From NCBI GenBank assembly GCA_041650855.1, contig JBAZKJ010000001.1, positions 551,078 to 615,077 on the forward strand: a stretch of DNA of 64,000 bases, in the 5' to 3' direction. Origin of the DNA: Candidatus Margulisiibacteriota bacterium. GTDB lineage: Bacteria; Margulisbacteria; WOR-1; O2-12-FULL-45-9; XYB2-FULL-48-7. The notes under the pieces were generated by a model. It saw nothing but the letters and a program-made list of their open reading frames with translations, was not told where the DNA came from and searched no databases. Positions 43,424-62,465 of the stretch are shown here, piece by piece. Every line of letters starts with the position of its first letter. Position 1 is the first letter of the stretch. Both the position numbers and the translations under genes were made by a program.

Positions 43424-43469
43424 TCCGGAAGATTATCGGTCTGCAATTTTGGGGATTTCAGGGACTTTT

Positions 43470-43494
43470 CCCTCTCCATCGGCGATGGAGAGGG
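43470..43494. other. perfect 11-bp inverted repeat (stem-loop) CCCTCTCCATC-GGC-GATGGAGAGGG in the only sizeable gap of the surface operon
   Basis: Not followed by a U-run on either strand. Lies between the CTD-protein gene and the giant S8 gene. Confidence 0.6.
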
Positions 43495-43518: not shown

Positions 43519-44706
43519 TTAGTCAACCAGCGTCATCTTCACCTTGCCAAGCAGGCGATTGTCGTCCTTGGCCAGGATGGTGCCGACGTAGATGGCGTTG
43601 CCGGCCAGGTATCCCTGGTCGCTCCGGCCATCCCATTCAACCTTGTTGACGCCGGCCGAGCCGCCTTCGCTGCCGGCCAGGCAGTTCCAGCGCTTGATCC
43701 GCATGCCGCCGACGCCGATCAGGTAAATGTCGATATTGGCGTCGGTCGACAGGGTGTACTGGATGTAGACCTTCTTCTGCTTGGAGATGCTGAACGGCGA
43801 CGGATAGGTGATCGGCGTGCCGATCAGGCGGACCGGACCGCCCATCACTTCGACCGAGGCGATCTCGGTAGCGGTCGTCGCGGCGGCGATCAGGCCGCTG
43901 GAAGTGGCTTTGACCTTGAACGAATGCTCGCCTTCGCTGAGCGCTTCTTCAAAGGTGTATTTAACGGTCATGCTGCTAACTTTCCCTTCGTCGGCTCCCG
44001 TTCCCGCCGCGTAAACCGTGGAAGCGACGTTGGCGGCGGTCAGGGAGAGCGTCCTCGCGGTCGCCGTTCCCTCGTCGACAACGATCGAGTGCGATTCGAT
44101 GTTCCGGGCCAGGGTGAACGGGCTGTCCATCCCCATTTCCACCTTGATGTCCGGGGTGCTGGAAATAACGAACTTCTCTCCCTTGGCGACCAGCACTTTT
44201 TGGTAGAGGCGGTTGCCGAACCAGATCTTGATCCGCGGGGCCGGCTCGCCGCCGACTTCGGTCGTGACGACTATGGCCAGGCCCTTCCCTTTGGCCAGGA
44301 TCAGCGTCCCCGAGGCGAGGTCGAGCCCCGCGCCGGTGATCTTGACGCTGACCGGGTCTGATCCGTAGCCGTTGGCCGGGTCGCTCGGGTTGTCGTTGGG
44401 AATGGAAACATAGTATGTTTCGCCGACCGTCAGCGAGCTGAATTTAAGCCCGTAGGTATTTAACATATACTGCCCGGTGGCCTTGGCGACCCCGGCCAGC
44501 CCGATCTTATCGAAAGAGTATTTCCCGGCCATCGCTTCATCGGCTGTTTTGTAAAAAATGACGTAGCGCCCTTCCACCGTCTTGCCGTCTTCGGAATCCT
44601 GCGCTCCGCCCTTTACCCAATATTGCGGATAGAACGGCAGGGTGTACGCGACTACCGCCGCCGCCGCTATCAACGCTATTAACAGTCCGATGTAAGCTCT
44701 TTTCAT
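43519..44706 (-). CDS. secreted surface-operon protein: N-terminal CarboxypepD_reg-like (YWVKG) module, Ig-like middle, T9SS-type/FlgD-Ig-like C-terminal domain
   Basis: Signal peptide. PFYPQYWVKG ... VIFYK module shared with the genes at 46771 and 49493. C-terminal YPSPFS ... VEWDGRSDQGYLAGNAIYV ... KMTLVD. SD GGGAAGGAA. Confidence 0.8.
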   Translation of the reverse strand: MKRAYIGLLIALIAAAAVVAYTLPFYPQYWVKGGAQDSEDGKTVEGRYVIFYKTADEAMAGKYSFDKIGLAGVAKATGQYMLNTYGLKFSSLTVGETYYVSIPNDNPSDPANGYGSDPVSVKITGAGLDLASGTLILAKGKGLAIVVTTEVGGEPAPRIKIWFGNRLYQKVLVAKGEKFVISSTPDIKVEMGMDSPFTLARNIESHSIVVDEGTATARTLSLTAANVASTVYAAGTGADEGKVSSMTVKYTFEEALSEGEHSFKVKATSSGLIAAATTATEIASVEVMGGPVRLIGTPITYPSPFSISKQKKVYIQYTLSTDANIDIYLIGVGGMRIKRWNCLAGSEGGSAGVNKVEWDGRSDQGYLAGNAIYVGTILAKDDNRLLGKVKMTLVD

Positions 44707-44716
44707 TATTCCTTCC

Positions 44717-46750
44717 CTAAGGGAGAGTTAAGGTAAAGTCCTCGTTCACGAACACCTGGTATCCTTCGCCCGCGGTGACCAAGAAGTCGGTCCCCTCGCC
44801 GGCCGGGGTCCAGCCGAGCGCCGTGCCGGTGGTCCTGTCCCATTTACCGACGACAATAACGACGCTCTTCCCCGCCTTGGCGTTGATCACGTTGATCAGC
44901 TGGCTCGCGTTGGTGACGGTCGCGCCGGTCGCTTCCTTCAAGCCGCTCGGAATGGTGATCGAGTTGACGATCAGTTTATCCGTGGCCGAGGCCTTGAGCG
45001 GGAAGGTCATACTGCCGCTGCCGCCGGGCACTACGCGGCCGCCGGACAGCACGCCGCCGGAGAACTGGTGCCCGGCAATGGAGGCGGCGCTGGTCGGATC
45101 GAGCGCCGTGCCGGCATTGTAGGCGAACGCCTTAAAGTAGTAGATCGTCCCCCCGGTCGTGTCGAGCGTCTCGCCGGCGAAGTTCGCCAGCGGCGCTTCG
45201 GTCAGCAATCCCGCCTCGGCCGGCGTCGGCCCCGGCTGGTTCAATACCATCTTGGCGATCGCCGGGTTATCCAGGTGCGAGGTTGTCGTCAGGTCCGCCC
45301 AAGCCCCCAGGCTGGTGGTGCCGATGATCAGCGCGCCGCCAAAGAACGCTTCGGGCGGGTTATTCCAGCGGAAAGCTAGCCCGCTGGACGAGGCAAGTGA
45401 AAGGAAGTTCTTCAGCGCGGTCGGGGCCACGCCCGGCGCGGCCGACTTTTGCGTCGCTGCCGACCAGTTGTTCCCCTGCTCTCTCGGCGGGCCGGCAACC
45501 GCCCGGTCGTAAGCATACAGGGCATAATAATAAACCTTGCCGTTCGTCAGGCCGTTGTCGACGTAGCTGGTCCCGGTCCCTTTATAAATAACGACCGCGT
45601 TCGCGTCGCCGGGCGGGTTCGCGCCGACCGCCGGGGCCGGTGTTCCGTCGCTATTGCCGCTGGCGTTGCTGAAAGTCGGCGCCGGCATGCCGGTTTCTTT
45701 TCTCAGCAAGATAACGCCGCCCAGATCGGGGGCGCCCGGGTTCGTCCAGGAGATCGTCAGCTTCTTGTCGGCGGCGGCGATCGCCATGCCGGTCGGCGCG
45801 CCCGGCGCGGTGTAGTCGTGCGGCGTCGCCGATAACTGGGTAGTATTCGCTTCTTCGTTCCGGGTCGGCAAACAATCGTCCAGGCCGTGCGCGGTAAAAT
45901 AATAGGTCGTACAATCGCTCAGCTGTTCCATGGCCGTCCCCGGGATCCCGGTATCCGGACCGTTGGTGTAGGCGGAGGCGTTGATCGCCGAACCGTTAAC
46001 CTTGCTCCCCAGCGTGCCCGAGGCTTCGCTCCGGTATAAGTTGTAGCGGAGTTTGGTGCCGGAAGCGTAGATCGTTTCGGCGTTCTCTTTCTTGTCGTTG
46101 GCCGCCGCTTCGTTCGCCGCCCAACCGAGGGAGACCGTGTTTCCCTTGGTCGTGTCGGCCGCGGTGTTGAGCCCAACAAAGTTCGGCACCTTGGACGCCT
46201 CTAAGTGGATGGTGGTATCGGTCGCGTCGACCGGGTCGACGATGCTGCCGGTAACCGCGGTCCCCGACTGCACGACTGAGACGTTGTTCACCCGGTCGGT
46301 CATGGTGAAGCGGATATAGTAGGTCTCGCTGCCGACCGTCGCCCCCTGGTTAACGTGGAAGCTGATCGTTGCCAGCGTTTTGCTGGCGCCGGCCGCGACC
46401 GCCAGCGGCACCTTGCCGGAGGCCGGATCGGTCTTCAGCTGATAGCGGATCGAGCCCGGCGTGGCGACATTGTTTTCGGAGACGACAAAGTTCGCCGAGT
46501 TCGCCTGGGTGACCGCGATGGACGCTTGCTCCAGAATGTTGCTTTCGTAATCGATGTAGAGCTTGGCGGCGTCGACATTGACAGCCGCGCCGGTGTTGTT
46601 GGTGTAAATGACGTTGACTGTGCCGGTGGCGCCGACCTCAACATAGCGGTATTCGGCCCGGCCGACGTACGGCGCGGAGAACTCGAGCTTGGCGGCGGCG
46701 GCTGTCGCGAGCACCCCTCCTATTAGCAAAAATATTAAGGCTTTTTTCAT
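44717..46750 (-). CDS. secreted surface-operon protein: cohesin-like N-domain, Fn3 domain, shared C-terminal module
   Basis: 677 aa with signal peptide. Residues 20-170 follow the cohesin pattern (LYIDYES ... SIRYQL ... TISFHV). Fn3 in the middle (LTISWTNP ... YYYALYAYD). C-terminal LINVINAKAG ... VGKWD ... GEGYQVFV. Confidence 0.8.
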   Translation of the reverse strand: MKKALIFLLIGGVLATAAAAKLEFSAPYVGRAEYRYVEVGATGTVNVIYTNNTGAAVNVDAAKLYIDYESNILEQASIAVTQANSANFVVSENNVATPGSIRYQLKTDPASGKVPLAVAAGASKTLATISFHVNQGATVGSETYYIRFTMTDRVNNVSVVQSGTAVTGSIVDPVDATDTTIHLEASKVPNFVGLNTAADTTKGNTVSLGWAANEAAANDKKENAETIYASGTKLRYNLYRSEASGTLGSKVNGSAINASAYTNGPDTGIPGTAMEQLSDCTTYYFTAHGLDDCLPTRNEEANTTQLSATPHDYTAPGAPTGMAIAAADKKLTISWTNPGAPDLGGVILLRKETGMPAPTFSNASGNSDGTPAPAVGANPPGDANAVVIYKGTGTSYVDNGLTNGKVYYYALYAYDRAVAGPPREQGNNWSAATQKSAAPGVAPTALKNFLSLASSSGLAFRWNNPPEAFFGGALIIGTTSLGAWADLTTTSHLDNPAIAKMVLNQPGPTPAEAGLLTEAPLANFAGETLDTTGGTIYYFKAFAYNAGTALDPTSAASIAGHQFSGGVLSGGRVVPGGSGSMTFPLKASATDKLIVNSITIPSGLKEATGATVTNASQLINVINAKAGKSVVIVVGKWDRTTGTALGWTPAGEGTDFLVTAGEGYQVFVNEDFTLTLP

Positions 46751-46770
46751 GTTCCTCTTGCTCCTCCTTT

Positions 46771-48225: not shown

Positions 48226-48239
48226 GGTTCTCCTTCTGT

Positions 48240-49460
48240 TTATTTGTACCCGGTCAGCGTCATGGTAAAGGCGTCTTTGTCGACGCTAACTTGATACGGC
48301 CGGTCCTGGACGATCGAAGCCGCCAATATGTTCGCGACCGAATCTCCTGTGGCGACAGTCAGACCGGTATCGATCGCCGTTCCGGAGTAGCTGATCGCCG
48401 TCAGACCGACGTGCTTCTGGGTGTCGGCGTCGTACCAGCCGAACACTTTAACCGTTTGCTGCGCGGCCTTTTCGTTGATCTTTTCGATCAGCGCCTGGAC
48501 GGTCAGCGTTTTCGGCGCGCCGGTGGTTATTTCCGTCGTGCCATCCCAGATCCCGCTCGACGCGGTGAACGGAATAGAGAGCGTGTTGATGCCGGACGAC
48601 GGCCTCTTAAAGTACCAGGTAACGGGCACCAGGGTGGGACCGCCGGTCCCGCCGGTTAAAGTGGTCCACGCCGGATCGAGCGGAGCGCCGACCGTTGAGC
48701 CGAACCAGTTATAGGCCTTGGGGACAAATTGGTATGTTCCGGCAATGACCAGCGGGTCGGTGCTCGTGGAAAGGACCAGCGTGCCATTCGTGTATTTTGT
48801 CGCCGTCCCGCCCGCGCCCGGATAGGTCACATCTATTGAATATTTAGTCGTGCCTGGCGAAACCGCTGCAGTTTGGATCACTTTAGGCGTTGTTTCGCTG
48901 CAAACAACCGGGACTGTCAGCGTCAGAAACTGGTTCGTTGTGCTGCCGTCCCTTTGCGACGCTTCAACGACCGAGCCGATCGTCGGGGCGTTCGGCGCTT
49001 CTTCGAAATAATTTGCCGAAAAGTTCTTGAGCCACTGCATTGAAGAAGCGATGTTCGAGCCCAAGGCTAATGTTTGCGTCACGGTCTTATCGTCGCTATA
49101 ACCCTGCGTGCCGTACCCGTATTTCCCGCCGGCTTTGTATCTTACTGTAATATTGATCAAATTTTCGGCAAAATAGAACCGGTTAAACGCCGGCTTCCCT
49201 CCAGCCGCCGGGAGTTCATCGATCGTTCCATAAGGAACAAGCGGCGTCCCGTCCTGGTCGGGCGTCGGCAAGCTGGCGGAATTATAAAACTTCAACTCGC
49301 CTGCCAGATAAGCCGCTTTTGGGTCGCTGACCCCGGTGATGGTGCAGTCCGGCGAGCCGATGCTTTTTTCGATCTTAATATATCCTGACGCAAAGGCTGC
49401 TCCCGCCAGCAATAACACCAGCAGTGCAGTCAACCCTCCTTTGATATTGAAATTTTTCAT
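48240..49460 (-). CDS. secreted surface-operon protein with shared C-terminal module
   Basis: Start placed at MKNFNIKGG (SD GGAGGGAG 5 nt upstream). The MEGDNM start in the ORF track is a translation of the SD. C-terminal LIEKINEKAAQQTVKVFGWYD module. Confidence 0.75.
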   Translation of the reverse strand: MKNFNIKGGLTALLVLLLAGAAFASGYIKIEKSIGSPDCTITGVSDPKAAYLAGELKFYNSASLPTPDQDGTPLVPYGTIDELPAAGGKPAFNRFYFAENLINITVRYKAGGKYGYGTQGYSDDKTVTQTLALGSNIASSMQWLKNFSANYFEEAPNAPTIGSVVEASQRDGSTTNQFLTLTVPVVCSETTPKVIQTAAVSPGTTKYSIDVTYPGAGGTATKYTNGTLVLSTSTDPLVIAGTYQFVPKAYNWFGSTVGAPLDPAWTTLTGGTGGPTLVPVTWYFKRPSSGINTLSIPFTASSGIWDGTTEITTGAPKTLTVQALIEKINEKAAQQTVKVFGWYDADTQKHVGLTAISYSGTAIDTGLTVATGDSVANILAASIVQDRPYQVSVDKDAFTMTLTGYK

Positions 49461-49492
49461 ATTATCTCCCTCCATTAATTTATCACTACCTT

Positions 49493-51079
49493 CTAAGGCC
49501 TCGGCGCGTTCCAGTCGATTGGATCGGCATCCAGCTTGTGATAGTACCAGTATCCCTTCCCAATTTCGATCGGCGTATCAGCCCAGGCCGGATCGATCTT
49601 GGAAACAGGGATCAACCCGATTCCATCCCACTTTTGGATCACATCTTCATCTGTCGGGCCCGTGCCTAGCCCAAAGTTGTCAACAATATAATTGATCGGG
49701 TAAGGAGCCGCAATCAGGTTAAAGCTACCTCTGATCTGGCTGCTAAAGTCTGTGTTCTTGACCACTCCAACCATGCGCAATGCTCGCGGGTCTGCCCCAG
49801 TTCCGTCGGTTAATGGCCGGTAGACCCACAATCCCTTACCAAGCGTTATCTCGAAGGGCGGAGTTCCCCAGCCACCCGCCGTATCATTGTAGGAAGCCGG
49901 ATCCAACATCCAGTTGTTCGGATTAAAATCGGTCGTTTTCCATGACTGGATGATGCTTTCGTTCGGCAATTGTGCGCCAACAATATTAGGTATGCTTCCA
50001 TCAATGTGGTTGTTATCGGGCGAGCCGGACGGCGTCGTCGGGTAGAACGGCACGCCGACCAAGTTAAAGCCTTTGGCGAGATCCCATGTATACTTGACCG
50101 CGGTGATGGAGTTCTCCGAGTCTGCCATCCGGAGCGCCGGGTCGGAGGTGGTGACGACGCGGTAATACCGGATCGGCACGGCGGCGTCGGTGATGAGCTT
50201 AGATGTTACTCCGGCGACTTCCGAACCGAGGTTAACGCTGTAATCATCCGGGTTCGTAGAGAACGGCCCGCCGTCCTTGGCATAAATATGAATGGTATAT
50301 CCGGCCGGCGTATCGTAATCCCAGTGGAGGATCACGTTGCCGTTCGTCATCCTTTCGATCCAGGTCTTCCGGACCTTGCCGGTGTCGGCATTGCCGCCGA
50401 CGCTTAACCGGAAGCCGACCCAGGTAACGTTATTGGCGGTAACCGCCGCCGTCTTATTGACCGTGCCGTAGCTCGCCTTGGAACAGGCCAGCGCGTAAGA
50501 TCCCGGATCGAAATTGTCCAGCAAATAGGCGCCGCTGGTGTCGGAGGTATCGGAGGCGCCGGTATTGGCGATAATGGTCGCGCCCGCTACCACCGCCCCG
50601 ACTTCGTCGGTCACGATGCCGGCGATCTGGCCTTTGCCCGCCTGCGGCCCGCCGCCATTGATCAGCGTCAAGCCGGTAGTAATATAACCTTTGGACCAGT
50701 CAACCGTGCAGATCTCCGACGAACCGTAGTTGTTCGTAACGCCGCCCCAGTCCCTGACCACGGCGACGTTGAACACCGGCTTGCCGCCGATCTCCATATA
50801 GTTGTCGTCCTTGTGGTAAAAGAAGAGGTCATAGGCGTTAAAGTAGAACACGCCGCCGGTCCCCACTTCCGCCGTCACGACTTTGGTGCTGTCGAAAGTC
50901 GTGGCGTAAAGAATGACCGGGCGGCCGGCTAATTGGCCGCTCGGGTCGTTGACCGTCCCCTTGACCCAGTAGAACGGCATGGTGCCGGCTTGCGGCGCCG
51001 GCCAAACTGCCGCCGCGGCGCCGGCGAATATCGCCAGTCCGAGCAGCAGCAGTGTCAGTATCTTGATCCGTTTAAACAA
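49493..51079 (-). CDS. secreted surface-operon protein: CarboxypepD_reg-like N-module (x2) and shared C-terminal module
   Basis: TTG start with SD AAAGGGGAA. MPFYWVKGTVNDPSGQLAGRPVILY N-module. Second CarboxypepD_reg-like segment AGATIIANTGASDTSDTSGAYLLDNFDPGSY. C-terminal IEIGKGYWYY. Confidence 0.75.
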   Translation of the reverse strand: MFKRIKILTLLLLGLAIFAGAAAAVWPAPQAGTMPFYWVKGTVNDPSGQLAGRPVILYATTFDSTKVVTAEVGTGGVFYFNAYDLFFYHKDDNYMEIGGKPVFNVAVVRDWGGVTNNYGSSEICTVDWSKGYITTGLTLINGGGPQAGKGQIAGIVTDEVGAVVAGATIIANTGASDTSDTSGAYLLDNFDPGSYALACSKASYGTVNKTAAVTANNVTWVGFRLSVGGNADTGKVRKTWIERMTNGNVILHWDYDTPAGYTIHIYAKDGGPFSTNPDDYSVNLGSEVAGVTSKLITDAAVPIRYYRVVTTSDPALRMADSENSITAVKYTWDLAKGFNLVGVPFYPTTPSGSPDNNHIDGSIPNIVGAQLPNESIIQSWKTTDFNPNNWMLDPASYNDTAGGWGTPPFEITLGKGLWVYRPLTDGTGADPRALRMVGVVKNTDFSSQIRGSFNLIAAPYPINYIVDNFGLGTGPTDEDVIQKWDGIGLIPVSKIDPAWADTPIEIGKGYWYYHKLDADPIDWNAPRP

Positions 51080-51100
51080 AAATTTCCCCTTTGTTATCGC

Positions 51101-52393: not shown

Positions 52394-52420
52394 CTTATTC
52401 CCCCTTTTACTTTGTGCGCC

Positions 52421-53644: not shown

Positions 53645-53656
53645 ATGCTTCTCCCC

Positions 53657-56335
53657 TTACTTCGCCGACTTGTCCTCCAGCGCTTTGATCCGCGCCTTCA
53701 GCGCTTCGTTCTCCGCTTTCAATTCCTTGATCGCTTCGACAAAGAGGGCGCTAAAGCCATTGTAGTTGACCGCTTTATAGCCGTCCGGCCCTTCGCTGAC
53801 CAACTCCGGCGCCACCTTCTCAATCTCCTGAGCGATCAACCCGAGCTGGGTCGTCCCCGGCAATCCTTTGGCCCCCGCATCCTTCCACTTATAGCTTACG
53901 CCTTGCAGTGCAGCAACCCTATTAAGCGAGCCGGAGAGCGGCGCTATGTCACTCTTAAGCCGCATATCTGAGAAGACAATGCCAACTGTTGAGTAACTAT
54001 ACTTACCGATCGACGTACCGTAAGTTATTTCGTCAGCTGTTAGTAACGGCGCTTTCATCCGACCAGTATTGTTATTAATCTGATAAGCGGCCTTCCAACC
54101 ACTCGAGCCCCTTACCCCCAACGCCGTTGTTGCCGGATAGTTCACCGTGGCAGGGAAATGCGCGAAAAGCGCCGAGTAGGTTGTGCCTGCCGTGTTATCA
54201 GCGATCCAGATCCCCGGAGCTTGCCCGCCGTTCGTCTCCGGCAAAAGAACAAGGTTTTTCTTGGTCCCGACCGCAAGGTCGTTGATATATTGCGTCTTGA
54301 AAACGTTGTTGGTAAGCCTAGCGTCGGCGATTGTGCCGGTCGTGATATTGGCCGCGTTAAGGCTGGTCAGGTTCGCTCCGCTGATAGCCGGAAGCGCCCC
54401 GGTTAACTTCGACGCGGTAATGCCGCTAGCGATCTTCGCATCGGTAACCGCGCTGGCCGCTATATCGGCCGTGGCAATGGTGTTCCTTTGCGCGATCGTT
54501 CCCAATCCAGCCGAAGCTTGCAGTTTGGTGAATGTCAGGTCGAAGTCTGACGCCACTTTGTGCCACGAACCGCCTACCACGTTCTGGTAGAGACCGGCAC
54601 CGTAGCTGCCTGATGGTGCGGTCAGATTAAAGAATGAACCGAGTGAGTAGTTCCCGGTGTAGCCCGTGCCTGCTGACGGTAAGGCCGTCCCGCTGGGCGC
54701 GACTTGCGAGAACGACAGCAATCCCGATACTTTTGACGCCGGCACGGCGGAGACGTTGCTTAAGTCGGTCTTCGCGTAACCGTCCAGAGCAACCGTGGTC
54801 AGGAAGTCGCCGCTCAAGTTTTGGACCTTGCTCATGTTCGTTGCCAATTTTTGCAGGCTTGATCCCGCCTTCAGCCGGTAAGTTGTGGTAACGCCGCTTT
54901 TGCTCGTATAGGTCCAATCCGACGCCGCGTTGCCGCTCATCCCCATCACGTGTTCTGCCAGCGCAACCCGGTCCTCAACGTCCGACCCTACCGGGTCGCC
55001 AGGGTCGGTTACCGGGCCTGCCGGATCGATCTTCTCAACCGATTGCATAAATTCCGGCAACTCAATTTTGAAGCTCCCTTTGGTGACCCAAATCTTGACA
55101 TCCCCTTCAGCGCTGGAGCTGACTTGGTCGACCACTCTGACCGGGACATTAACAACCGTGGCCCCCGTCGACGGGACCATGGTCGTGAAAACGATCTGGC
55201 CGGTCGTTGGGCCAAATATAACGTCCGAAACCGCTACCGTGATCGGGGGTAAAGGTAAATAACCACCGTCGGGCACGTGATACGCCGTTACAGTTCCCCG
55301 AAGATTCCAGAGGTAGTCGGGGACCCCTCCGCTGGCCTGCATCGTTACAGAAAAATCAGCTATCCCGGCCGAGGCTTTCATGACGTTTATAATCTTGTGT
55401 AAAGTGACCGGCTGCTTTTTAACCATGATGTTTCTTTCTTCGACAGCAACCTGGTTATAAAAATCTTTCATCCTAACCGTCAATTTTCTCCAGCCTTCTG
55501 TGGCGGTAAGCGCTACAGAGCCATTTAGCTGCGCCCTTTGCGTTGCCGTGGGGCCGGTACTAACCGTCAACGCCGACGGATTGATCCCCGTAACAGCCGG
55601 CTCGATTGAAACCGTCCAGGTAAAGGTCGGTGTCCCGGCGCCGGCTTTTCGTTCAAATACGCCTGACCAAGGTTTTCCAATATAGAAATAATCAGCGGGG
55701 TCGGTACTAATGGTAAACGCCGGAGAAGAAGTTACTCCCGTTATCGCTCCCTGGACGTTCATGTTCCCCCGGACCAGCAAGTCGCCGTTAATGTCACATT
55801 CGTAACCCGTTGTCACTTCCGGGGTCATGACGCCGACGCCGACGTTCGTGACCCGCAGCTTACTAAGGTCGCTGTAGCCCTGGATATCCAGGCCGTTGCC
55901 GGCGCCAACGCCGGTGCCGCCGGTCCTGATCCTGGCGACGTCATTCCACCAACCCAGGCTGACGCTCGCATTGTCGTTGTTGGGATTTCTGCTGATCACA
56001 TGTCCCGCTGTTATCGCGTAGGGAGCAGCAGTTAATGCCTGGCCCGGTAAAGCAGTGCCGTTCACTTCGACGGTAACTACGGCGTATTCGGGGAGCAATA
56101 ACGCGGTCTTTGACCCCAACTGGACGCTGAAAAAACCTTTTTCATCGATGTTAAGTTCGGTCGCGGTGTAGCTTTCCGACCAGCTGTTGATCCTGAACAC
56201 GACGGTTTGGCTGCCGGTCGGCGCCCCTTTCTTGAAGACCCCCTGGAAGTTTATTTTTTGCGGGACCGCCCAGCCCGGACTCGCCACCACCAGCGCCACA
56301 AAAAGGACCACGACCGCCATCATTAATTTTTTCAT
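53657..56335 (-). CDS. tail-fibre-like trimeric surface protein with C-terminal peptidase-S74 intramolecular chaperone domain
   Basis: 892 aa with signal peptide. Repetitive beta-helix/fibre-like middle. C-terminal 104 aa SDMRLKSDIAPLSG ... VSYKWKD ... GLIAQEIEKVAPELV ... IKELKAENEALKARIKALE matches the endosialidase chaperone domain. Confidence 0.85.
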   Translation of the reverse strand: MKKLMMAVVVLFVALVVASPGWAVPQKINFQGVFKKGAPTGSQTVVFRINSWSESYTATELNIDEKGFFSVQLGSKTALLLPEYAVVTVEVNGTALPGQALTAAPYAITAGHVISRNPNNDNASVSLGWWNDVARIRTGGTGVGAGNGLDIQGYSDLSKLRVTNVGVGVMTPEVTTGYECDINGDLLVRGNMNVQGAITGVTSSPAFTISTDPADYFYIGKPWSGVFERKAGAGTPTFTWTVSIEPAVTGINPSALTVSTGPTATQRAQLNGSVALTATEGWRKLTVRMKDFYNQVAVEERNIMVKKQPVTLHKIINVMKASAGIADFSVTMQASGGVPDYLWNLRGTVTAYHVPDGGYLPLPPITVAVSDVIFGPTTGQIVFTTMVPSTGATVVNVPVRVVDQVSSSAEGDVKIWVTKGSFKIELPEFMQSVEKIDPAGPVTDPGDPVGSDVEDRVALAEHVMGMSGNAASDWTYTSKSGVTTTYRLKAGSSLQKLATNMSKVQNLSGDFLTTVALDGYAKTDLSNVSAVPASKVSGLLSFSQVAPSGTALPSAGTGYTGNYSLGSFFNLTAPSGSYGAGLYQNVVGGSWHKVASDFDLTFTKLQASAGLGTIAQRNTIATADIAASAVTDAKIASGITASKLTGALPAISGANLTSLNAANITTGTIADARLTNNVFKTQYINDLAVGTKKNLVLLPETNGGQAPGIWIADNTAGTTYSALFAHFPATVNYPATTALGVRGSSGWKAAYQINNNTGRMKAPLLTADEITYGTSIGKYSYSTVGIVFSDMRLKSDIAPLSGSLNRVAALQGVSYKWKDAGAKGLPGTTQLGLIAQEIEKVAPELVSEGPDGYKAVNYNGFSALFVEAIKELKAENEALKARIKALEDKSAK

Positions 56336-56360
56336 TTTATTTCCTCCTAATCGACTTTTC

Positions 56361-58265
56361 TTAGTATGTGTCCCAGTTCAAGAGGTCTTTCTTCAAGACC
56401 TGCTGCACGTAATCGGTGCGATAGAGCATCTCCACCGTTTCCGCTCTGGTCAATTGCTTGTTCGGCTCAAAGTTCAGCCCTTTCAGATACTGCAAGATAT
56501 TAACTTTATTGCTCCCGGCGATGATCTTGGCCGCCCAGTGGTTGCCGGCGACGTCCGGGAAGTCGCGGGCGTAGGTCTCTTCGCTGACGCCGGCAAAGCG
56601 GGCGATCATTGCCAGCCCTTCGGCGCGGGTGATCTTGCCGTTCGGTTTAAAGACGTTGCCGGGGTAGCCCTTGACGACGCCGAGCGCCGCCGCTTCCGCG
56701 ACGAACGCGCTGGCCCAGTGCTTCCCGGGGACGTCCTTGAACGCCGCCGCCGTTAACGCCGCCTCTGCCGTCGACGCGTTCTGTTTCCTGGTCTTCATCA
56801 GTAGTGAGCACATTTCGGCGCGGGAAATGCCGCCCTCCGGCTTGAACGTGCCGTCGGGATAACCGGTGATGATGTTCTGCATCGCCAGGAGCGAGATCGG
56901 CTTGTCAACCCAGTAGCCGATGACAACGTCCGGGAAGGTCGTTAAGCGGAGCAGGCGGACCTTGGACGAGCCGACCAGCTTGCCCCGGTCGTCGCTGCCG
57001 GCCAGGATGATGCCGTTCTTGCCGATCTTCAGTTCCACCTCGGTCGAGATGTCCCCCTTCAGGTTCATCTTGACCGGCTGGCCGTTGATCGTGGCGGTGC
57101 GGATCCGGCTGTTCGCCGCGTGCGCGTGGACCCGCGTCGCGCCGGCAAACGTGATCGTCTTGTCATCGGGCGAAGTAAAGGTGAATGGGTCCTTGCTGCT
57201 CTCAACGGCCGGCGGCAGGTAGTTGTAAGAGAGCGAGAAGAAATGGTTGTCGATATTCGGCGCGCCGGCGAAAGCGTGGTAGGCGTAGTCGAACCGGAAC
57301 CCGCCGAAATACATGCCGACGCCGTAAGTCGGATCGGAATAAGTCGTCAGGCCGCCGTTGCCGTCGCCGCCGGCATCCTGGTCGATACCGGCCCGGATCG
57401 CCAGGATCGAGACCGGCTTCCATTCCGCGCCCAAATGCATGACCGGCGGATACCCGGCCAGCGAAGGATGGAGGTCGATGTCGGTCATGATCTTGAGCTC
57501 GTGGTCCCCGTATTTCGCCAGCGCTTTATCTTTGCCGAGCACGGAAAAGGCGGCGCCGGTCTCGATCACCGCCGGGTACGATTCTTCGTGGCCGCCGGAG
57601 TATGTCAGTTTGCCGCCCAGGCCGGCGGGGAGAGCGTTTTGCACCGCCATACCGAGCGCTAGCCAGCGCAGCGGCGTGTATTTGATGCCGAAGTCGAGCT
57701 CCTGGCCGGAGGCGTCGCCGTTCTGGATCCCGTCGCCGTAGAGGCGCGCCCGGAATAATTTAACACTGGTGCCGAGCGTGATCTTGTCCGCTTGCGGGAC
57801 CTGTTTGACGTAAGGGATCTTGTCCGCTTTGTTGCCGTAAGAGAAGACCATGGCGGCGTTGTCGTTCCCCATGGTCGGCTGGCTCGGGTCGATCGTGTAG
57901 ATCGGATCGGCCGGGTCGGACCCCGCTTCGATCGTGGTGGCGAACGCCCCGGCGATCGAGGTCCCGGCGTAACCAAAACCGAAAACGCCGTACTCGGTCG
58001 GATATAAGCCGGAAAAAGAGAGATAGCTGTATTCGTCGAGGAATTTACCGGACATAGAAGACAATTGCCACCCGGAAACGTCGCCCATGCCGGCCGGGTT
58101 GGTGTACATCGCGCCGGTATCGTCGGCCAGGGCGATATACGCTTTACCAAGCCCCAGGACGCGGCCGTTCGGTACGTATCTCGTCGGGTCTTGCGCGACA
58201 TACTGGGCGCAGGCAACGCCCGCCAGTAAAACGGCGGCCACTATGGCGGTTAATATTCGTTTCAT
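56361..58265 (-). CDS. outer-membrane FadL/OmpP1/PorV-like beta-barrel with three C-terminal SLH domains
   Basis: Signal peptide. N-terminus LGLGKAYIALADDTGAMYTNPAGM matches the FadL signature ([25 protein letters not shown]). Three C-terminal SLH repeats (GYPDGTFKPEGGISRAE, GYPGNVFKPNGKITRAE, ... NKQLTRAE). Confidence 0.8.
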   Translation of the reverse strand: MKRILTAIVAAVLLAGVACAQYVAQDPTRYVPNGRVLGLGKAYIALADDTGAMYTNPAGMGDVSGWQLSSMSGKFLDEYSYLSFSGLYPTEYGVFGFGYAGTSIAGAFATTIEAGSDPADPIYTIDPSQPTMGNDNAAMVFSYGNKADKIPYVKQVPQADKITLGTSVKLFRARLYGDGIQNGDASGQELDFGIKYTPLRWLALGMAVQNALPAGLGGKLTYSGGHEESYPAVIETGAAFSVLGKDKALAKYGDHELKIMTDIDLHPSLAGYPPVMHLGAEWKPVSILAIRAGIDQDAGGDGNGGLTTYSDPTYGVGMYFGGFRFDYAYHAFAGAPNIDNHFFSLSYNYLPPAVESSKDPFTFTSPDDKTITFAGATRVHAHAANSRIRTATINGQPVKMNLKGDISTEVELKIGKNGIILAGSDDRGKLVGSSKVRLLRLTTFPDVVIGYWVDKPISLLAMQNIITGYPDGTFKPEGGISRAEMCSLLMKTRKQNASTAEAALTAAAFKDVPGKHWASAFVAEAAALGVVKGYPGNVFKPNGKITRAEGLAMIARFAGVSEETYARDFPDVAGNHWAAKIIAGSNKVNILQYLKGLNFEPNKQLTRAETVEMLYRTDYVQQVLKKDLLNWDTY

Positions 58266-58271
58266 TCTTGT

Positions 58272-60236
58272 TTATCTAACGGCTGCCGGCTTGATCATGA
58301 TCCGGTTCTCGACGATCTTCTTGTTCTTTTCGTCAAAAACCAGCAAGGTGTAAAGTCCCGACGTCAGATAGGGGGCCATTTTCGCCCTTTCGATCACAAA
58401 GTCGACTTTGTTCGTCGCCGGCGGATTGAACGTGAAGGTTTCTTCCCACATCTTGCGGCCATAGCCGTCGCTCAGCACCGCTTTGAGGTAGCTGATCTGC
58501 ACACCCTTGGGAAGACGGATAAAGGCGGGCATGGCCCCTTTGGTTTCCGGGTCCCAGGTCTTTTCTTTCATGCCGCCGTAACCGATGGCGCCGTTCCCCG
58601 CCCCGGTCGCCGGGACGATCGCCCCGGTCTCGCCCGTGCTGGGGACAGCCACCCGGACCAGGAGATATTGCTGGCGGTTGTTGCCGGCCGCGTCTTCGGT
58701 ATAAATGATCAGGGCCGCGTCCTTGCCGCCGGCGGTAGTCGGCAGGCTGAACTGATACCCGGCCTCAATGCTGACCGGCGAAATAAGGCTGACCGAGCTT
58801 TCCGGAATGAGATAGTCATAGCTGGCTCCATCCAGATTAATAATGAACCTGACGATCTTGGTCATATTATTGCTGGAAGTAGCCTCGATCGTCATGATGT
58901 CGTTGCGGCTGATCGTAGTCCGCGGGGTAACGACGCTCCCTTCCGTGGTCGGCGGCAGGTAAACGCTGCGGGAAGCGCCGGCGCCGAACCAAACCCGGGG
59001 GATCTGGACCGTCGCCCCGTTGGCGGCTACCACCAGCGCCCCGGTTTCCGTGGAAACGGTCGCGTCGCCGTTGGTGACCGTAACATCCCAGGCCCCGGTG
59101 GTTACCTCCGGAGTGGTTATTATATATGTAAGAAGCCGGCTGTCCGATTCATAGCTGGAATAGAGCACGGTTATGCCGCTTTTCCCTGTCGCCTCAAAGG
59201 TCGCGTAGGCGCCGGCAATAAACCCGCTGCCGACAACCTCCACCGTCCCCATCCAGCCCGATTTGATCGAACTTGGGGTTACTCCGGTGATCCGGGGAGA
59301 TTCCAGCTTGTAAATGTTCCCGCCGGCACCGGCCAGGAAGGCAAAAACCGAGATATTTGGGCTGGTTCCGACCGTTTTGACCGAAATATCCCTAATATCG
59401 GCGGCGGGCGTCAGGGCATAAGTGGTCCAGCTTAAGGCGCCGTCCGCGGTCAGTGCGACCGTGCCGGCATCCCCGACCACCCAACCAAAGCCTTCTGTGA
59501 CAAAATAAAGGGAATTAAGGTTCGCGACCAAGCCGGCGGAGATCTCGCTCCAATTTGCCCCGCCGTCGAGCGATTTCAAGACCAACCCGGAGGCGCCGAC
59601 CGCGTAGCCGACCGAAGCACTTGCCAGCATCACGTCCCTGACCGCGCCGGTGCCGGTCCAGACCTCCGTCCCATTACGGATAATAGCGTAATTGACCGAG
59701 TCTTTCCTTTGGCCCCAAACGAAGATGTCCCCGGCCTCGCTTATATAAGCGCCCTGGATATTCAGATTGCTTTGCAGTTCGGGAGTCCAGTTTGCGCCGC
59801 TATCGGTCGATCGATACAGGTAGCTGTCGCCGGATGAGCCGTTGGAGGCGGCGATCGCCCGGGCCGCGCCGCTGAAGCCGATCTTGAGCAGGTTTGCCGT
59901 GCCGACCCCGGCGAGCGCGACGGGAGAGAACGTTTCGCCGTCATCGAGCGACTTGAGCAGGGTGCCGGACGCGCCGGCGGCATAGAGCTCGCCGGCTGCC
60001 GGGGCAGCCACGTCATATAATGTTTGCGCCGTACCGGTAACTTTTGCTTCCCAGGTGACGCCGCTGTTGCCGGTCTTTAAAAAGGTCCCGTTATTGCCGA
60101 CGGAGAAGCCGATGGCCGAAGCGGGGAAATAACAAGCCTGGAGATCTTGAGTGGTCGTTGACTCTTGCGTTACCCATCCCGCCCACGCGAGGGGAGCAAG
60201 CAGAGCCACGATGAAAAAACTTTTCATCAGCCGCAT
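58272..60236 (-). CDS. secreted Ycf48/BNR-like beta-propeller protein with Ig-like domains; first gene of surface operon
   Basis: Signal peptide MRLMKSFFIVALLAPLAWA. The GTG 60258 in the ORF track lies inside the promoter. Ycf48-like repeats (GNNGTFLKTGNSGVTW, ... SLDGGANW, ... TADGALSW). C-terminal beta-sandwich possibly CTD-like. Confidence 0.75.
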   Translation of the reverse strand: MRLMKSFFIVALLAPLAWAGWVTQESTTTQDLQACYFPASAIGFSVGNNGTFLKTGNSGVTWEAKVTGTAQTLYDVAAPAAGELYAAGASGTLLKSLDDGETFSPVALAGVGTANLLKIGFSGAARAIAASNGSSGDSYLYRSTDSGANWTPELQSNLNIQGAYISEAGDIFVWGQRKDSVNYAIIRNGTEVWTGTGAVRDVMLASASVGYAVGASGLVLKSLDGGANWSEISAGLVANLNSLYFVTEGFGWVVGDAGTVALTADGALSWTTYALTPAADIRDISVKTVGTSPNISVFAFLAGAGGNIYKLESPRITGVTPSSIKSGWMGTVEVVGSGFIAGAYATFEATGKSGITVLYSSYESDSRLLTYIITTPEVTTGAWDVTVTNGDATVSTETGALVVAANGATVQIPRVWFGAGASRSVYLPPTTEGSVVTPRTTISRNDIMTIEATSSNNMTKIVRFIINLDGASYDYLIPESSVSLISPVSIEAGYQFSLPTTAGGKDAALIIYTEDAAGNNRQQYLLVRVAVPSTGETGAIVPATGAGNGAIGYGGMKEKTWDPETKGAMPAFIRLPKGVQISYLKAVLSDGYGRKMWEETFTFNPPATNKVDFVIERAKMAPYLTSGLYTLLVFDEKNKKIVENRIMIKPAAVR

Positions 60237-60245
60237 TACCGCATA

Positions 60246-60274
60246 ATAATAGCACACCACACAACAATGTGCAA
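60246..60274 (-). promoter_or_regulatory. candidate promoter TTGCAC-17-TATTAT for the 20-kb minus-strand surface operon
   Basis: Read on the minus strand. The -10 lies 9 nt from the ATG of MRLMKSFF. Confidence 0.35.
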
Positions 60275-62441: not shown

Positions 62442-62465
62442 CGGTTCCGGCAAGGAGGGTTAGCT

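Follow-up and report, generated by a model that had tools for sequence, protein, structure and literature searches.

A ten-gene cluster of secreted modular proteins in Margulisiibacteriota, a candidate SLH-anchored adaptor chain

Layout and limits of the cluster

The window, a 64,000-nucleotide stretch of a Candidatus Margulisiibacteriota contig, carries on its minus strand eleven ORFs that had been described in a sequence-only reading as one operon of secreted modular proteins (Table 1). An ORF check of the window recovered all eleven with their coordinates, and the close packing noted earlier (6-27 nt) also held, with gaps of 6, 25, 12, 27, 21, 17, 14, 20 and 10 nt through g10. Of the Shine-Dalgarno sites claimed for most genes, purine-rich SD-like motifs could be identified before g03-g06 and g08-g10; the two reported TTG starts belong to g04 and g06. 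Translation of g07 probably begins at the sixth codon (49460, the 406-aa call), that of g01 probably at 60227, 11 codons further downstream (651-aa call). All cluster proteins have Sec signal peptides. Pfam searches, which the earlier reading had proposed, detected BNR/Ycf48-like, SLH, S74, CarboxypepD_reg, He_PIG and S8/FG-GAP/fn3 domains.

The S8 protease gene g11, placed by that reading at the 3' end of the operon, is real and so are its domains, but it is no part of the conserved unit. It is separated from g10 by 95 nt, which contain a perfect 11-bp hairpin and a promoter-like site (43461..43432), and in none of the related loci examined does an S8 gene come after the g10 orthologue. For these reasons g11 is probably a neighbour with a separate transcription unit, outside the conserved system. 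There is no SD-like motif within 30 nt upstream of its start. At the hairpin, what we treat as a ten-gene unit (g01-g10) probably has its 3' end or is processed.

Table 1. Features of the cluster and of related genes in the window
Feature	Gene or segment (nt)	Residues	Strand	Basis or remark
g01, secreted BNR/Ycf48-like beta-propeller, C-terminal Ig-like region	58272..60260		-	Pfam PSII_BNR 5.6e-17
g02, PorV/PorQ-type barrel, Glucodextran_B-like sandwich, three SLH	56361..58265		-	NCBIfam, Pfam
g02 barrel	57219-58172	32-349	-	NCBIfam PorV_fam
g02 three C-terminal SLH repeats	56364-56939	about 443-634	-	Pfam SLH 1.6e-31
g03, secreted tail-fibre-like protein	53657..56335		-	Pfam, PHROG
g03 S74 intramolecular chaperone	53798-53971	789-846	-	Pfam Peptidase_S74 6.8e-16
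g04 (type A), signal peptide, A-cassette body, two CmodA	52421..53644		-	local HMM iteration
g04 tandem CmodA	52478-53035	204-291, 296-389	-	HMM
g05 (type B), variable head, C-terminal CmodB	51101..52393		-	CmodB HMM
g05 CmodB	51116-51535	287-426	-	HMM
g06 (type N-A), Nmod, CarboxypepD_reg, A cassette with two CmodA	49493..51079		-	Pfam, HMM
g06 Nmod	50654-50998	28-142	-	
g06 CarboxypepD_reg		151-225	-	Pfam
g06 two CmodA	49535-50098	328-441, 443-515	-	HMM
g07 (type B), variable head, fn3-like middle, CmodB	48240..49475		-	HMM, AF2
g07 CmodB	48249-48644	278-409	-	
g08 (type N-dockerin), Nmod, He_PIG Ig domain, beta-rich region, dockerin-like segment	46771..48225		-	
g08 Nmod	47827-48159	23-133	-	
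g08 He_PIG		152-231	-	Pfam
g08 dockerin-like duplicated Ca-loop segment	46825-47019	about 403-467	-	loops DMDGNNYIDVVD, DLDQNGLVDVID
g09 (type B), cohesin-like head, three fn3-like domains, CmodB	44717..46750		-	
g09 cohesin-like head	46241-46630	about 41-170	-	Pfam Cohesin, sub-threshold
g09 CmodB	44723-45025	576-676	-	CmodB HMM
g10 (type N-CTD), Nmod, Ig-like middle, FlgD-Ig/T9SS-CTD-like end	43519..44706		-	
g10 Nmod	44293-44646	21-138	-	
g10 CTD	43522-43845	288-395	-	profile
Hairpin, 11 bp perfect	43470..43494		-	CCCTCTCCATC-GCC-GATGGAGAGGG, immediately 3' of g10 stop
g11, S8 protease, FG-GAP, fn3	39494..43423		-	Pfam
Another S8 protease, CTD at extreme C-terminus	20011..22224		-	Pfam Peptidase_S8
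CTD of that protease	20020-20301	642-735	-	CTD HMM
Second PorV-like barrel, shorter, C-terminal SLH	62658..63773		+	NCBIfam, Pfam SLH 3.5e-16

A search for this gene order in relatives, likewise proposed with the reading, revealed that the cluster recurs across the phylum and is kept in Margulisiibacteriota/Saganbacteria (related loci are labelled L001 etc.). Relatives with the cluster share 45-64% identity in g02 and 34-52%, over the full length, in g10, which is the best-conserved modular protein and invariably the last gene. The 208 homologues of g02 come, where the source is named, from Margulis/Sagan/WOR-1 bacteria, with one entry given as '[bacterium]'.

Propeller, barrel and fibre genes

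The match of g01 to PSII_BNR bears out the Ycf48-like propeller of the earlier reading. A propeller gene adjoins the PorV-SLH gene in L001, L003, L004 (three pairs), L006, L011, L012 and L013, so that g01 is a conserved partner gene of the barrel. Orthologues of g01 elsewhere end in the C-terminal domain (CTD) of g10; none is detectable in the window's own g01, whose C-terminus gives no significant score. The g02 product had been called a FadL-like barrel with three SLH domains. The three SLH repeats stand, and the family profile matches the SLH structures of Sap, OmpM and SlpA, but the barrel scores as PorV/PorQ-like (NCBIfam PorV_fam, E 1.4e-15, full-length, 57.7 bits and thus under the cutoff of 90); PorV itself is FadL-like. 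With the family profile, the barrel had no PDB sequence match to PorV structures. The second, shorter barrel (PorV_fam 6e-18, T9SS_OM_PorV 1.7e-8, PorQ 5.3e-7) belongs to the adjacent, divergent operon, where it comes after a 688-aa beta-helix protein (60375-62441).

The tail-fibre-like protein with an S74 chaperone was confirmed as g03, for which PHROG gave matches (to 1.2e-30) to families of tail fibres and baseplates over residues 495-891. Its N-terminal domain (23-115) recurs in L003, L006, L011/L015 and L033, and in the related loci with a PorV-SLH gene in view, a protein with such a domain follows that gene directly (L003) or within 2-4 ORFs. These matches, the chaperone, and the weak hits in BFVD that the g07 model has to tail-fibre/tip proteins via their fn3 domains could suggest a degraded prophage or a tailocin-derived tail-fibre module. 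However, g04-g10 have no PHROG matches, the g10 family was not found among 2.9 million viral contigs, the cluster contains no other phage genes, and its chromosomal contexts are conserved, with a signal peptide on every protein. We consider a phage origin hardly credible.

Shared modules

The N-terminal module reported for g06, g08 and g10 (Nmod) is indeed common to the three, at 31-34% identity. Its family has 18+ members, in which it always directly follows the signal peptide, starting within about 30 residues of the N-terminus. Its interpretation as CarboxypepD_reg/transthyretin-like is weak (2/28 members match, best E 0.0018). The C-terminal module that five proteins were thought to share proved to be two unrelated families: CmodB (g05, g07, g09), located at or near the extreme C-terminus, and the tandem CmodA (g04, g06). 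HMM searches of one against the other were negative, and hhalign gave probabilities of 12.6% and 28.7%, confined to the last 22-24 columns. Neither Nmod nor CmodA nor CmodB has Pfam, PDB-sequence or PHROG relatives.

CmodA and the body before it form an A cassette, which occurs alone, after Nmod, or as the end of a 3713-aa Kelch/beta-helix protein (L012). CmodB is rare and narrowly distributed (179 representatives in a set of 1.84 billion, those with a named source being WOR-1). The heads preceding it are hypervariable, with 3-4 homologues each, and g05 has no Pfam or PHROG match. The AF2 model of g07 (90 sequences) has a mean pLDDT of 84, and its CmodB region (90-98) is predicted as a compact alpha/beta domain; fold searches with this model yielded matches to fn3 only, none of which assigned the CmodB fold.

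Gene order, fusion and covariation

From g04 to g10 the genes follow the strict order A / B / N(A) / B / N / B / N-CTD, an alternation that the earlier reading had overlooked. In 29 non-redundant related loci plus the window, an Nmod gene comes after a CmodB gene in 38/40 cases, and a CmodB gene precedes an Nmod gene in 38/42 cases, three of the exceptions lying at contig ends. In a hand-compiled set of 21 modular gene runs, 38 of the 39 CmodB genes have an Nmod gene next; shuffling genes within runs produced 15.9 +/- 2.6 of these adjacencies, and 38 was not reached in any of 100,000 shuffles. The minimal unit consists of payload plus A cassette, head plus CmodB, and Nmod plus CTD, and is present in two copies each in L031 and L033. 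In L012 the giant Kelch/beta-helix protein is followed by B, N-CTD, propeller-CTD and PorV-SLH genes. No protein was found to contain both Nmod and CmodB.

A fusion was detected in L029/L030, two contigs from two samples that represent a single event. The protein of 823 aa joins the equivalents of g09 residues 1-575 (31% identity) and g10 residues 154-395 (47%), and what it lacks is exactly CmodB, the signal peptide and Nmod. The loss of just these modules suggests that CmodB and Nmod are the two halves of a split joint.

CmodB distances also correlate with those of the adjacent Nmod (Mantel test, r 0.67; 0.175 +/- 0.074 when partners are shuffled within a locus, with 0/2000 shuffles reaching the observed value). 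Because the loci are related by descent, the gene order and the Mantel statistics show that B-N pairs are inherited and duplicated as units, not that the modules touch.

Independent secreted or surface proteins, such as expanded adhesin or coat paralogues that do not bind each other, would account for several of these observations. Nmod, CmodA, CmodB and the CTD would then each serve to sort or anchor a protein by way of one shared receptor (LPS, cell-wall polymer, barrel), and the alternating order would be frozen in from the tandem duplication of a unit of two or three genes. The tandem A-B-NT triads of L031 and L033 fit this explanation, as do B heads that vary like those of exposed adhesins and a CTD found also on unrelated proteins, and phylogenetic non-independence can produce both grammar and Mantel signal. 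However, binding to a third party hardly explains a fusion that removes exactly CmodB and Nmod. The two modules never occur in one protein, the order is preserved unscrambled phylum-wide at 34-50% identity in those 38/40 cases, and the triad is retained even with the 3713-aa payload. We regard independent proteins as doubtful.

The cohesin/dockerin-like pair

A cohesin-like domain with a dockerin in the next gene had been proposed. The dockerin-like part is supported: a profile of five g08-type C-termini (A13) ranks true dockerins first (2y3n_B, E 5e-6; then 2ccl_B 7.9e-5 and 1ohz_B 1.3e-4), aligning both repeats, and the segment has canonical 12-residue Ca-binding loops. The cohesin-like part is plausible. 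The isolated N-domain of g09 matches Pfam Cohesin over nearly the whole model (positions 11-137/139, E 0.0019), below threshold at 18.8 bits against a cutoff of 24.1, as it does in 4/7 relatives; the order is g08 before g09. The full proteins have no cohesin or dockerin match in Pfam, Dockerin_1 missing full-length g08, and the g09-head profile finds no cohesin in the PDB. In the AF2 model of g09 the fn3-like domains are confident, the head and CmodB of low confidence.

A non-cellulosomal, SLH-anchored scaffold in which cohesin-dockerin contacts join the paralogues and organise the assembly could draw on the ranking of the dockerins, the loops, the near-complete Cohesin match, and the adjacency of g08 and g09 in the window and L019; in L010 (twice) and L018, too, a g09-like protein comes after a dockerin-like C-terminus. 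But among the ten genes there is a single dockerin-like module and a single cohesin-like one, none of them encodes a scaffoldin with several cohesins, the Cohesin score is below threshold, and the model of the head is of low confidence. In addition, g09 has only 9 homologues, and the C-terminal half of g08 is confined to the window, L019 and, weakly, L010. The pair is limited to a few close relatives; most related loci lack it and retain the cluster with A cassettes instead, and the comparative data suggest that the cluster assembles normally there. A cohesin/dockerin pair as the organising principle is thus unlikely; the best reading is one lineage-specific joint.

The g10 C-terminal domain

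The earlier reading did not note the CTD of g10. The best PDB match of the CTD profile is the PorU C-terminal domain (6za2, E 0.0023), followed by FlgD; all nine CTD members match Pfam FlgD_ig and one matches Por_Secre_tail. We take the PorU match as marginal, FlgD_ig-like sandwiches being common. The CTD also ends propellers next to PorV-SLH genes in L004, L006, L012, L013 and L031, and in the window it ends the S8 protease at 20011..22224 (72.7 bits, E 4e-23, with an HMM built without that protein). Its presence on this unrelated protease indicates that it is a general tag in the organism. In type IX secretion (T9SS), PorU and PorZ, which retain their CTDs, make up an attachment complex together with the barrels PorV and PorQ; a PorQ-PorZ complex has been proposed as the surface anchor of PorZ, and an association with PorP-like proteins is described for type B CTD proteins (PMC10947112). 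By homology, the g10 CTD is a beta-sandwich resembling the domains held by PorV-, PorQ- and PorP-type barrels in that system.

A type-IX-like pathway outside Bacteroidota would make the CTD an export signal and the PorV-like barrels shuttles, with module joints letting CTD-less partners travel with a CTD-bearing protein. The PorV/PorQ-family scores of two window barrels, the similarity to the PorU CTD, and cargo as diverse as proteases, propellers and g10 would agree with it. However, all T9SS-family scores are below curated cutoffs, and the scanned window ORFs and the gene tables of the related loci contain no SprA/Sov, PorK/L/M/N or PorU-type genes. Furthermore, T9SS is considered confined to Bacteroidota (PMC12365241). 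This pathway is quite unlikely.

The resemblance to the FlgD Ig-like domain also bears on a flagellum-associated outer-membrane structure. Here a collar, sheath or bushing around the flagellum would be built from PorV-SLH barrels, propellers and modular proteins, in a lineage whose outer membrane is tethered via SLH. In L004 flhA and a PorV-SLH gene share 8 nt, in L006 a propeller-CTD gene comes immediately after flhA, with a PorV-SLH gene after that, and 4/30 CmodB members weakly match the Flagellin_IN motif. Against this, the resemblance to FlgD and to Flagellin_IN is marginal, each of the proteins carries a Sec signal peptide, and no flagellar gene is found in the scanned window ORFs or the gene tables of L003, L011, L012 and L013. 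We judge a flagellar role very improbable.

Proposed assembly

We hold with roughly even confidence that the ten genes encode a daisy-chain of adaptor proteins, anchored via the CTD, the PorV-like barrel and SLH. By homology, g02 would be the outer-membrane anchor, its barrel fixed by the SLH repeats to a peptidoglycan-linked polymer; on g02, or on the propeller partner g01, g10 would dock via its CTD. The other secreted proteins would join end to end, non-covalently and in reverse gene order. At the first type of joint, for which the evidence is indirect but convergent, CmodB of g05, g07 and g09 would bind Nmod of g06, g08 and g10, respectively. At the second, the C-terminal module of an N protein (A cassette in g06, dockerin-like segment in g08) would bind the next B protein, as gene position, the dockerin-to-cohesin case and the giant payload protein of L012 suggest. 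This second joint is the weakest link of the model, since hypervariable B heads are hard to reconcile with binding by a conserved A cassette. Type-A g04 and the tail-fibre-like g03 would lie at the distal end.

There is no outer-membrane translocon among the examined genes of the window and the fetched loci, and the cluster proteins, presumed to lie at the surface, may instead be periplasmic. In agreement with the sequence-only reading, we infer a modular envelope structure that assembles itself and is held to peptidoglycan by SLH domains. That no described system matches it was borne out within the literature searched, where we found no counterpart of the cluster. As far as we can tell, this envelope assembly is restricted to one phylum, and its product would be a heteromeric fibre or adaptor chain, encoded by gene order, that shows variable heads and payloads at the cell surface.

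Layout of the locus

Eleven ORFs, named g01 to g11 in gene order, fill positions 39494-60260 on the minus strand of the window (see table). The sequence-only reading had described tightly packed genes with gaps of 6-27 nt, two TTG starts and an SD at most genes. The spacing was borne out for g01-g10, with 95 nt ahead of g11; the TTG start codons belong to g04 and g06, and the SD claim stands as SD-like motifs upstream of g03-g06 and g08-g10. Pfam and NCBIfam searches confirmed the Ycf48-like propeller that had been recognised (g01, BNR/Ycf48-like), and identified CarboxypepD_reg in g06, He_PIG in g08 and S8, FG-GAP and fn3 domains in g11. With whole-protein g04, g05, g07 and g09 no Pfam family was found at E <= 0.01. 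The remaining window is made up of housekeeping functions (fatty-acid synthesis, EF-Tu, LpxB, AsmA).

Features of the locus and of its surroundings (positions in the window)
Feature	Positions	Strand	Remarks
g01	58272-60260	-	ORF call
g02	56361-58265	-	ORF call
g03	53657-56335	-	ORF call
g04	52421-53644	-	ORF call
g05	51101-52393	-	ORF call
g06	49493-51079	-	ORF call
g07	48240-49475	-	ORF call
g08	46771-48225	-	ORF call
g09	44717-46750	-	ORF call
g10	43519-44706	-	ORF call
g11	39494-43423	-	ORF call
Hairpin	43470-43494	-	perfect 11-bp, GC-rich, 3-nt loop; directly 3' of g10 stop; without U-tract
Helix motif of CmodB in g07	about 48440-48530		L-I/V-x-x-I-N-x-x-A-G
C-terminus of g11	39494-39700	-	acidic repeat, then 13 further residues
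ORF containing LpxB	37881-39497	+	538 aa
ORF without Pfam family	15971-20014	+	1347 aa
S8 protease ending in CTD	20011-22224	-	737 aa
TMEM260-like protein O-mannosyltransferase	1747-3606		adjoins the next feature
BNR/Ycf48-like propeller	3610-4707	-	
Divergent operon	60375-63773	+	beta-helix protein, then SLH barrel
Second PorV-like barrel with SLH	62658-63773	+	shorter; 65.5 bits to NF033709; weak matches to PorV and PorQ equivalogs

The S8 protease g11 had been counted as the 3' gene of the operon. We place it outside the unit: the 95-nt gap between g10 and g11 contains the 11-bp hairpin and a promoter-like site, and in every related locus compared an S8 gene after the g10 orthologue is absent. 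The hairpin may be a terminator or an mRNA-stabilising structure that closes a ten-gene unit.

The C-terminus of g11 consists of a long acidic Asp/Thr repeat (DTDSDTDEETDTYDDTDTIDDTDT...) and 13 further residues. This end is similar to the Cys-rich beginning of MYXO-CTERM-type sorting signals (weak match to NCBIfam MXAN_2561) but lacks a transmembrane tail. At its stop, g11 shares 4 nt with the convergent lpxB ORF; in that ORF, LpxB lies behind about 170 Arg/Pro-rich residues, apparently a spurious N-terminal extension, and the true start is probably near 38380. Elsewhere in the window, the 1347-aa ORF, called as a gene in the source assembly, is opposed by three long antisense ORFs of 485, 246 and 523 aa; scans of the 485- and 523-aa ones found no family.

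Module families of the secreted proteins

Iterated local HMM searches of the window and of related loci (L-numbers) defined four module families, which we call Nmod, CmodA, CmodB and CTD. Nmod (about 115 aa) always follows the signal peptide directly and corresponds to the N-terminal module seen earlier in three proteins, namely g06, g08 and g10. CmodA (about 90 aa, usually in tandem) stands behind a conserved body, with which it forms the A cassette of g04 and g06. CmodB (about 120 aa) is found at or near the extreme C-terminus, behind the head of the B proteins g05, g07 and g09; these heads are hypervariable. The sequence-only reading had combined the last two families into one C-terminal module common to five proteins. 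Cross HMM searches between CmodA and CmodB were negative, and hhalign gave probabilities of 12.6% and 28.7% over the last 22-24 columns only. This rules out a single five-fold module, which therefore resolves into a three-member and a two-member family with a common terminal hairpin motif.

As families, Nmod, CmodA and CmodB have no Pfam, PDB-sequence or PHROG relative, and sequence profiles of CmodB and Nmod did not match the PDB either. As to the suggested CarboxypepD_reg/transthyretin-like nature of Nmod, 2 of 28 members match CarboxypepD_reg (PF13620 or a related model) weakly, with a best E of 0.0018; hhalign between Nmod and the true CarboxypepD_reg domain of g06 gave a probability of 0.3%, and comparisons of Nmod with the N-domain of g03 and with CTD were negative. 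Weak matches to Flagellin_IN (Pfam "Flagellin hook IN motif") occur in 4 of 30 CmodB members (best E 0.016). They derive from the conserved helix motif listed in the table for g07 and present in its relatives, and may reflect coincidence or a common small structural element. An AF2 model of g07 (90 sequences; mean pLDDT 84, CmodB region 90-98) consists of a variable head, a middle part resembling fn3, and CmodB as a compact alpha/beta domain; fold searches with this model returned fn3 matches only.

Because a word-indexed homologue search yielded few relatives (only 9 for g09 and 5 for g06), an exhaustive profile search was needed. Among 1.84 billion representatives it recovered 179 CmodB proteins, almost all of 350-450 aa with CmodB at or near the C-terminus; those named by source are from WOR-1.

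Conserved gene order and a gene fusion

Proteins with Nmod are denoted N, those with Nmod and an A cassette NA, and those with Nmod and a C-terminal CTD NT or N-CTD. The window then reads - - - A, B, N-A, B, N, B, N-CTD, and an identical alternation was found in related loci retrieved via g02 and g10, e.g. A, B, NA, B, N, B, NA, B, NT in L009 and A, B, NA, B, NA, B, N, B, NT in L023. The minimal triad A, B, NT is present twice both in L031 and in L033. A scan of genome contigs gave 4 loci only. Counted over 29 non-redundant loci and the window, an Nmod gene directly follows the CmodB gene in 38 of 40 cases, and 38 of 42 Nmod genes are directly preceded by a CmodB gene, three of the exceptions being contig ends. 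The two modules were never found in one protein. For a permutation test, 21 modular gene runs were compiled by hand, in which 38 of 39 CmodB genes are followed by an Nmod gene; shuffling the genes within runs yielded 15.9 +/- 2.6 such adjacencies, and none of 100,000 shuffles reached 38. CmodB distances also correlate with the distances of the adjacent Nmod modules (r 0.67; 0.175 +/- 0.074 when partners are shuffled within loci, with 0 of 2000 shuffles reaching the observed value).

These numbers would also be compatible with independent paralogous surface proteins whose gene order is frozen. Since the loci share ancestry, what the statistics show is that B-N pairs are conserved and duplicated together, not that the modules touch. 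An 823-aa protein in L029/L030 (8258-10729, +), contigs from two samples, matches g09 over residues 1-575 and continues immediately as g10 residues 154-395. Neither CmodB nor Nmod is detectable in it, and the absent parts are exactly the g09-type C-terminal module and the g10-type signal peptide and N-terminal module. Such a pattern is expected if a non-covalent CmodB-Nmod joint can be replaced by a covalent link; it represents a single event. The genes around the fusion gene are unrelated, and the 8 kb upstream of it contain no other modular gene.

An SLH-bearing barrel and a C-terminal domain

The claim of a FadL-like barrel with three SLH domains in g02 held for the three C-terminal SLH repeats. 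The barrel (residues 32-349) matches the NCBIfam PorV/PorQ family NF033709 over model positions 11-326 of 326 with E 1.4e-15, and at 57.7 bits stays below the cutoff of 90. Searched against the PDB, the g02 family profile reached only SLH structures, those of Sap, OmpM and SlpA; on the barrel nothing matched, PorV included. There are 208 homologues of g02, and those named by source are from Margulisbacteria, Saganbacteria or WOR-1, except for one "[bacterium]". In every gene context inspected, a propeller gene adjoins the barrel gene.

In the divergent operon next to the locus, a parallel beta-helix protein of 688 aa, which has a poly-Thr linker, is encoded ahead of the second, short PorV-like SLH barrel; beyond the window (L001 885-7891) a DUF1565 beta-helix protein and another SLH protein follow. 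This is a second arrangement of surface protein plus SLH barrel. In L006 (11907-13526) a TMEM260/PMT_2 gene directly adjoins the PorV-SLH gene, and such TMEM260-type neighbours, one of which lies beside a propeller in the window, hint at possible glycosylation of these envelope proteins.

With an SLH domain and an outer-membrane beta-barrel in one protein, g02 falls under the operational definition of the OmpM tethers of diderm Terrabacteria and, like them, would bind the outer membrane to the wall; its SLH part matches OmpM structures. OmpM homologues, defined as SLH plus barrel, are reported from Margulisbacteria and Saganbacteria in a survey that counts such proteins in the phylum and does not describe the g02-type architecture (bioRxiv 10.1101/2021.05.31.446380). 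In OmpM a single SLH at the N-terminus precedes a barrel of porin type. In g02 the PorV-like barrel is N-terminal and the three SLH repeats are C-terminal, a sandwich domain is present in addition, and the gene is always accompanied by a propeller gene.

The last 108 residues of g10 form the CTD. In the PDB its profile is most similar to the C-terminal domain of the T9SS protein PorU (6za2, E 0.0023), with FlgD next, and Pfam assigns FlgD_ig to 9 of 9 CTD members and Por_Secre_tail to 1 of 9. The CTD also terminates propellers beside PorV-SLH genes in L004, L006, L012, L013 and L031, and an unrelated 737-aa S8 protease of the window (residues 642-735, 72.7 bits), which had been left out of HMM building. 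It lies at the very end of g10, the propellers and the protease and so appears to be a general C-terminal tag, also of unrelated secreted proteins. At the end of g01 in the window, a CTD match was not significant.

A T9SS-like sorting pathway is a rival explanation of the locus. As in the attachment complexes of Bacteroidota (PorV-PorU, PorQ-PorZ, and PorP-like barrels with type B CTD proteins), a gene for a putative PorV/PorQ-type barrel lies beside one for a secreted protein that ends in a CTD-like beta-sandwich, and such domains are found on varied cargo such as proteases. PorZ has a propeller structure, and its combination of propeller and CTD recalls g01 and relatives. In Porphyromonas, PorU and PorZ retain their CTDs within an attachment complex of PorU, PorV, PorQ and PorZ, and the PorQ-PorZ complex has been proposed as the surface anchor of PorZ (PMC10947112); judged by analogy, it is the closest counterpart of a putative contact between g10 and g02 or g01 and g02. 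Against equating the two systems, the phylum is a different one (Terrabacteria, sister to Cyanobacteria), the barrel protein carries three SLH repeats as well, no family score reaches its curated cutoff, and most proteins are devoid of a CTD and apparently attached via other modules. The locus is without translocon, motor or sortase genes: SprA/Sov, PorK, PorL, PorM, PorN and the PorU sortase were not seen among the window ORFs scanned and the fetched loci.

In two distant relatives (L004 685-4633, L006 439-11923) PorV-SLH and propeller-CTD genes follow a flagellar export operon (fliM...flhB, flhA) without a break. L004 has an 8-nt overlap between flhA and the PorV-SLH gene, and three tandem PorV-SLH/propeller pairs. 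A flagellum-associated structure is a further rival, with flhA abutting PorV-SLH or propeller genes in these two loci; the scanned ORFs of the window and the gene tables of L003, L011, L012 and L013 contain no flagellar gene.

A dockerin-like and a cohesin-like module

The earlier interpretation of the locus was a purely cohesin-dockerin scaffold, with a cohesin-like domain in one protein and a type-I-like dockerin in the next. Whole-protein searches, including Pfam, matched neither domain, and Pfam Dockerin_1 gave no match on full g08. The C-terminus of g08 nevertheless contains two canonical 12-residue Ca-binding loops, DMDGNNYIDVVD and DLDQNGLVDVID, 38 residues apart and each followed by a Trp-rich helix, i.e. 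the two tandem segments of about 22 residues with loop and helix by which a dockerin is defined. This loop duplication is kept in five proteins from four organisms. Their profile places true dockerins at the top of the PDB (2y3n_B 5e-6, 2ccl_B, 1ohz_B, 5lxv_B, 5nrm_B), ahead of calmodulins and with both repeats aligned, so that the dockerin part of the claim stood. The cohesin part stayed sub-threshold: the isolated g09 head matches Pfam Cohesin with E 0.0019 and 18.8 bits (gathering score 24.1) over model positions 11-137 of 139; 4 of 7 relatives also match Pfam Cohesin, and the g09-head profile found no cohesin in the PDB. In an AF2 model of g09 from 6 sequences, pLDDT is mostly <60 in the head (block means 30-59), and CmodB is also of low confidence. 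A g09-like B protein follows each of the five dockerin-like proteins, with a small ORF between them in one L010 case. Profiles and adjacency together make a dockerin-to-cohesin contact between g08 and g09 plausible.

The pair is lineage-specific (9 homologues of g09) and occupies a slot held elsewhere by an A cassette and then a B protein; hhalign of other B heads against the cohesin-like head was negative. The locus would share with cellulosomes and non-cellulosomal cohesin-dockerin systems the non-covalent joining of secreted proteins by small terminal connector modules and an SLH-mediated wall link, and has this one dockerin-like and cohesin-like pair. Non-cellulosomal cohesin and dockerin modules are reported from many lineages (Peer et al. 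2009); a paper with this title is among the references of PMC3821032. Unlike such systems, the locus has no repeated-cohesin scaffoldin (the ten proteins contain one cohesin-like and one dockerin-like module) and no glycoside hydrolases, its main putative connectors, CmodB-Nmod and the A cassette, are unrelated families, its arrangement is apparently linear in gene order rather than a hub with spokes, and its SLH repeats sit on the outer-membrane barrel of a diderm.

The fibre protein and variable payloads

The tail-fibre-like protein with an S74 domain was confirmed as g03 by Pfam (Peptidase_S74, residues 789-846, 6.8e-16) and by PHROG tail-fibre families (residues 495-891, to 1.2e-30). In L003, L006 and L011/L015 a protein with the g03-type N-domain (residues 23-115) is encoded behind the PorV-SLH gene, either immediately or at a distance of two to four ORFs. 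Another such protein is encoded ahead of the second triad of L033, and BLAST matches g03 to the fibre gene behind the barrel in L008 and L018. We rejected a prophage remnant, to which the fibre gene might point: PHROG found no other phage families in the cluster, and the g10 family is absent from viral contigs. In the phage T4 long tail fibre (gp34-gp35-gp36-gp37), different proteins are joined end to end, with genes in assembly order. The proposed chain would resemble it, and g03 with its S74 chaperone is tail-fibre-like. The setting of the locus is a cellular one, however; the proteins other than g03 lack phage relatives, and all are Sec-exported.

The L012 locus encodes a Kelch/beta-helix protein of 3713 aa with an A cassette at its end, and B, N-CTD, propeller-CTD and PorV-SLH genes come next. 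A role of the A cassette as a tether for variable payloads would agree with this.

A possible surface assembly and its implications

We propose that g02 would reside in the outer membrane, held to the wall via SLH, and that g10 would dock via its CTD on g02 or g01. The CmodB of each B protein would plug into the Nmod of the next-encoded protein (joint 1), and the C-terminal A cassette or dockerin of each N protein would hold the following B protein (joint 2), with g04 and the fibre g03 at the distal end. We regard the CmodB-Nmod joint as rather probable and the CTD-barrel anchor as an even call, whereas a full linear chain at the cell surface is somewhat doubtful. Joint 2 is among the weakest points because the B heads are hypervariable; others are the sub-threshold T9SS-type scores and the export route across the outer membrane, of which none was seen. 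The complete plug-and-socket model for Margulisiibacteriota, i.e. a fibre assembled in gene order by CmodB/Nmod and A cassettes on an SLH-tethered PorV-like barrel via a T9SS-type CTD, is on balance unlikely to hold in all its parts.

The PorV-like barrel, the CTD, SLH and the dockerin/cohesin pair are variants of known systems; the connector families and their gene grammar are new, and the connectors stand a fair chance of being a new class. In agreement with the sequence-only reading, which could match the module combination to no described system, literature searches (Margulisbacteria and S-layer; PorV and SLH; type IX secretion and Margulisbacteria) found no description. The connector claim is cheaply testable, as the domains are small and soluble-looking and gene order defines cognate and non-cognate pairs. 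CmodB and Nmod would add a small orthogonal connector pair (about 120 and 115 aa), usable for protein assembly like cohesin-dockerin. If the plug-and-socket model is true, a CTD/PorV sorting route would exist outside Bacteroidota, and partners devoid of a CTD might be exported by riding on a CTD protein. It would carry PorV/CTD-type anchoring beyond that phylum and connect it with the way in which Terrabacteria tether their outer membrane via SLH, and would offer a first view, at the molecular level, of the cell surface in an uncultured phylum that is sister to Cyanobacteria.
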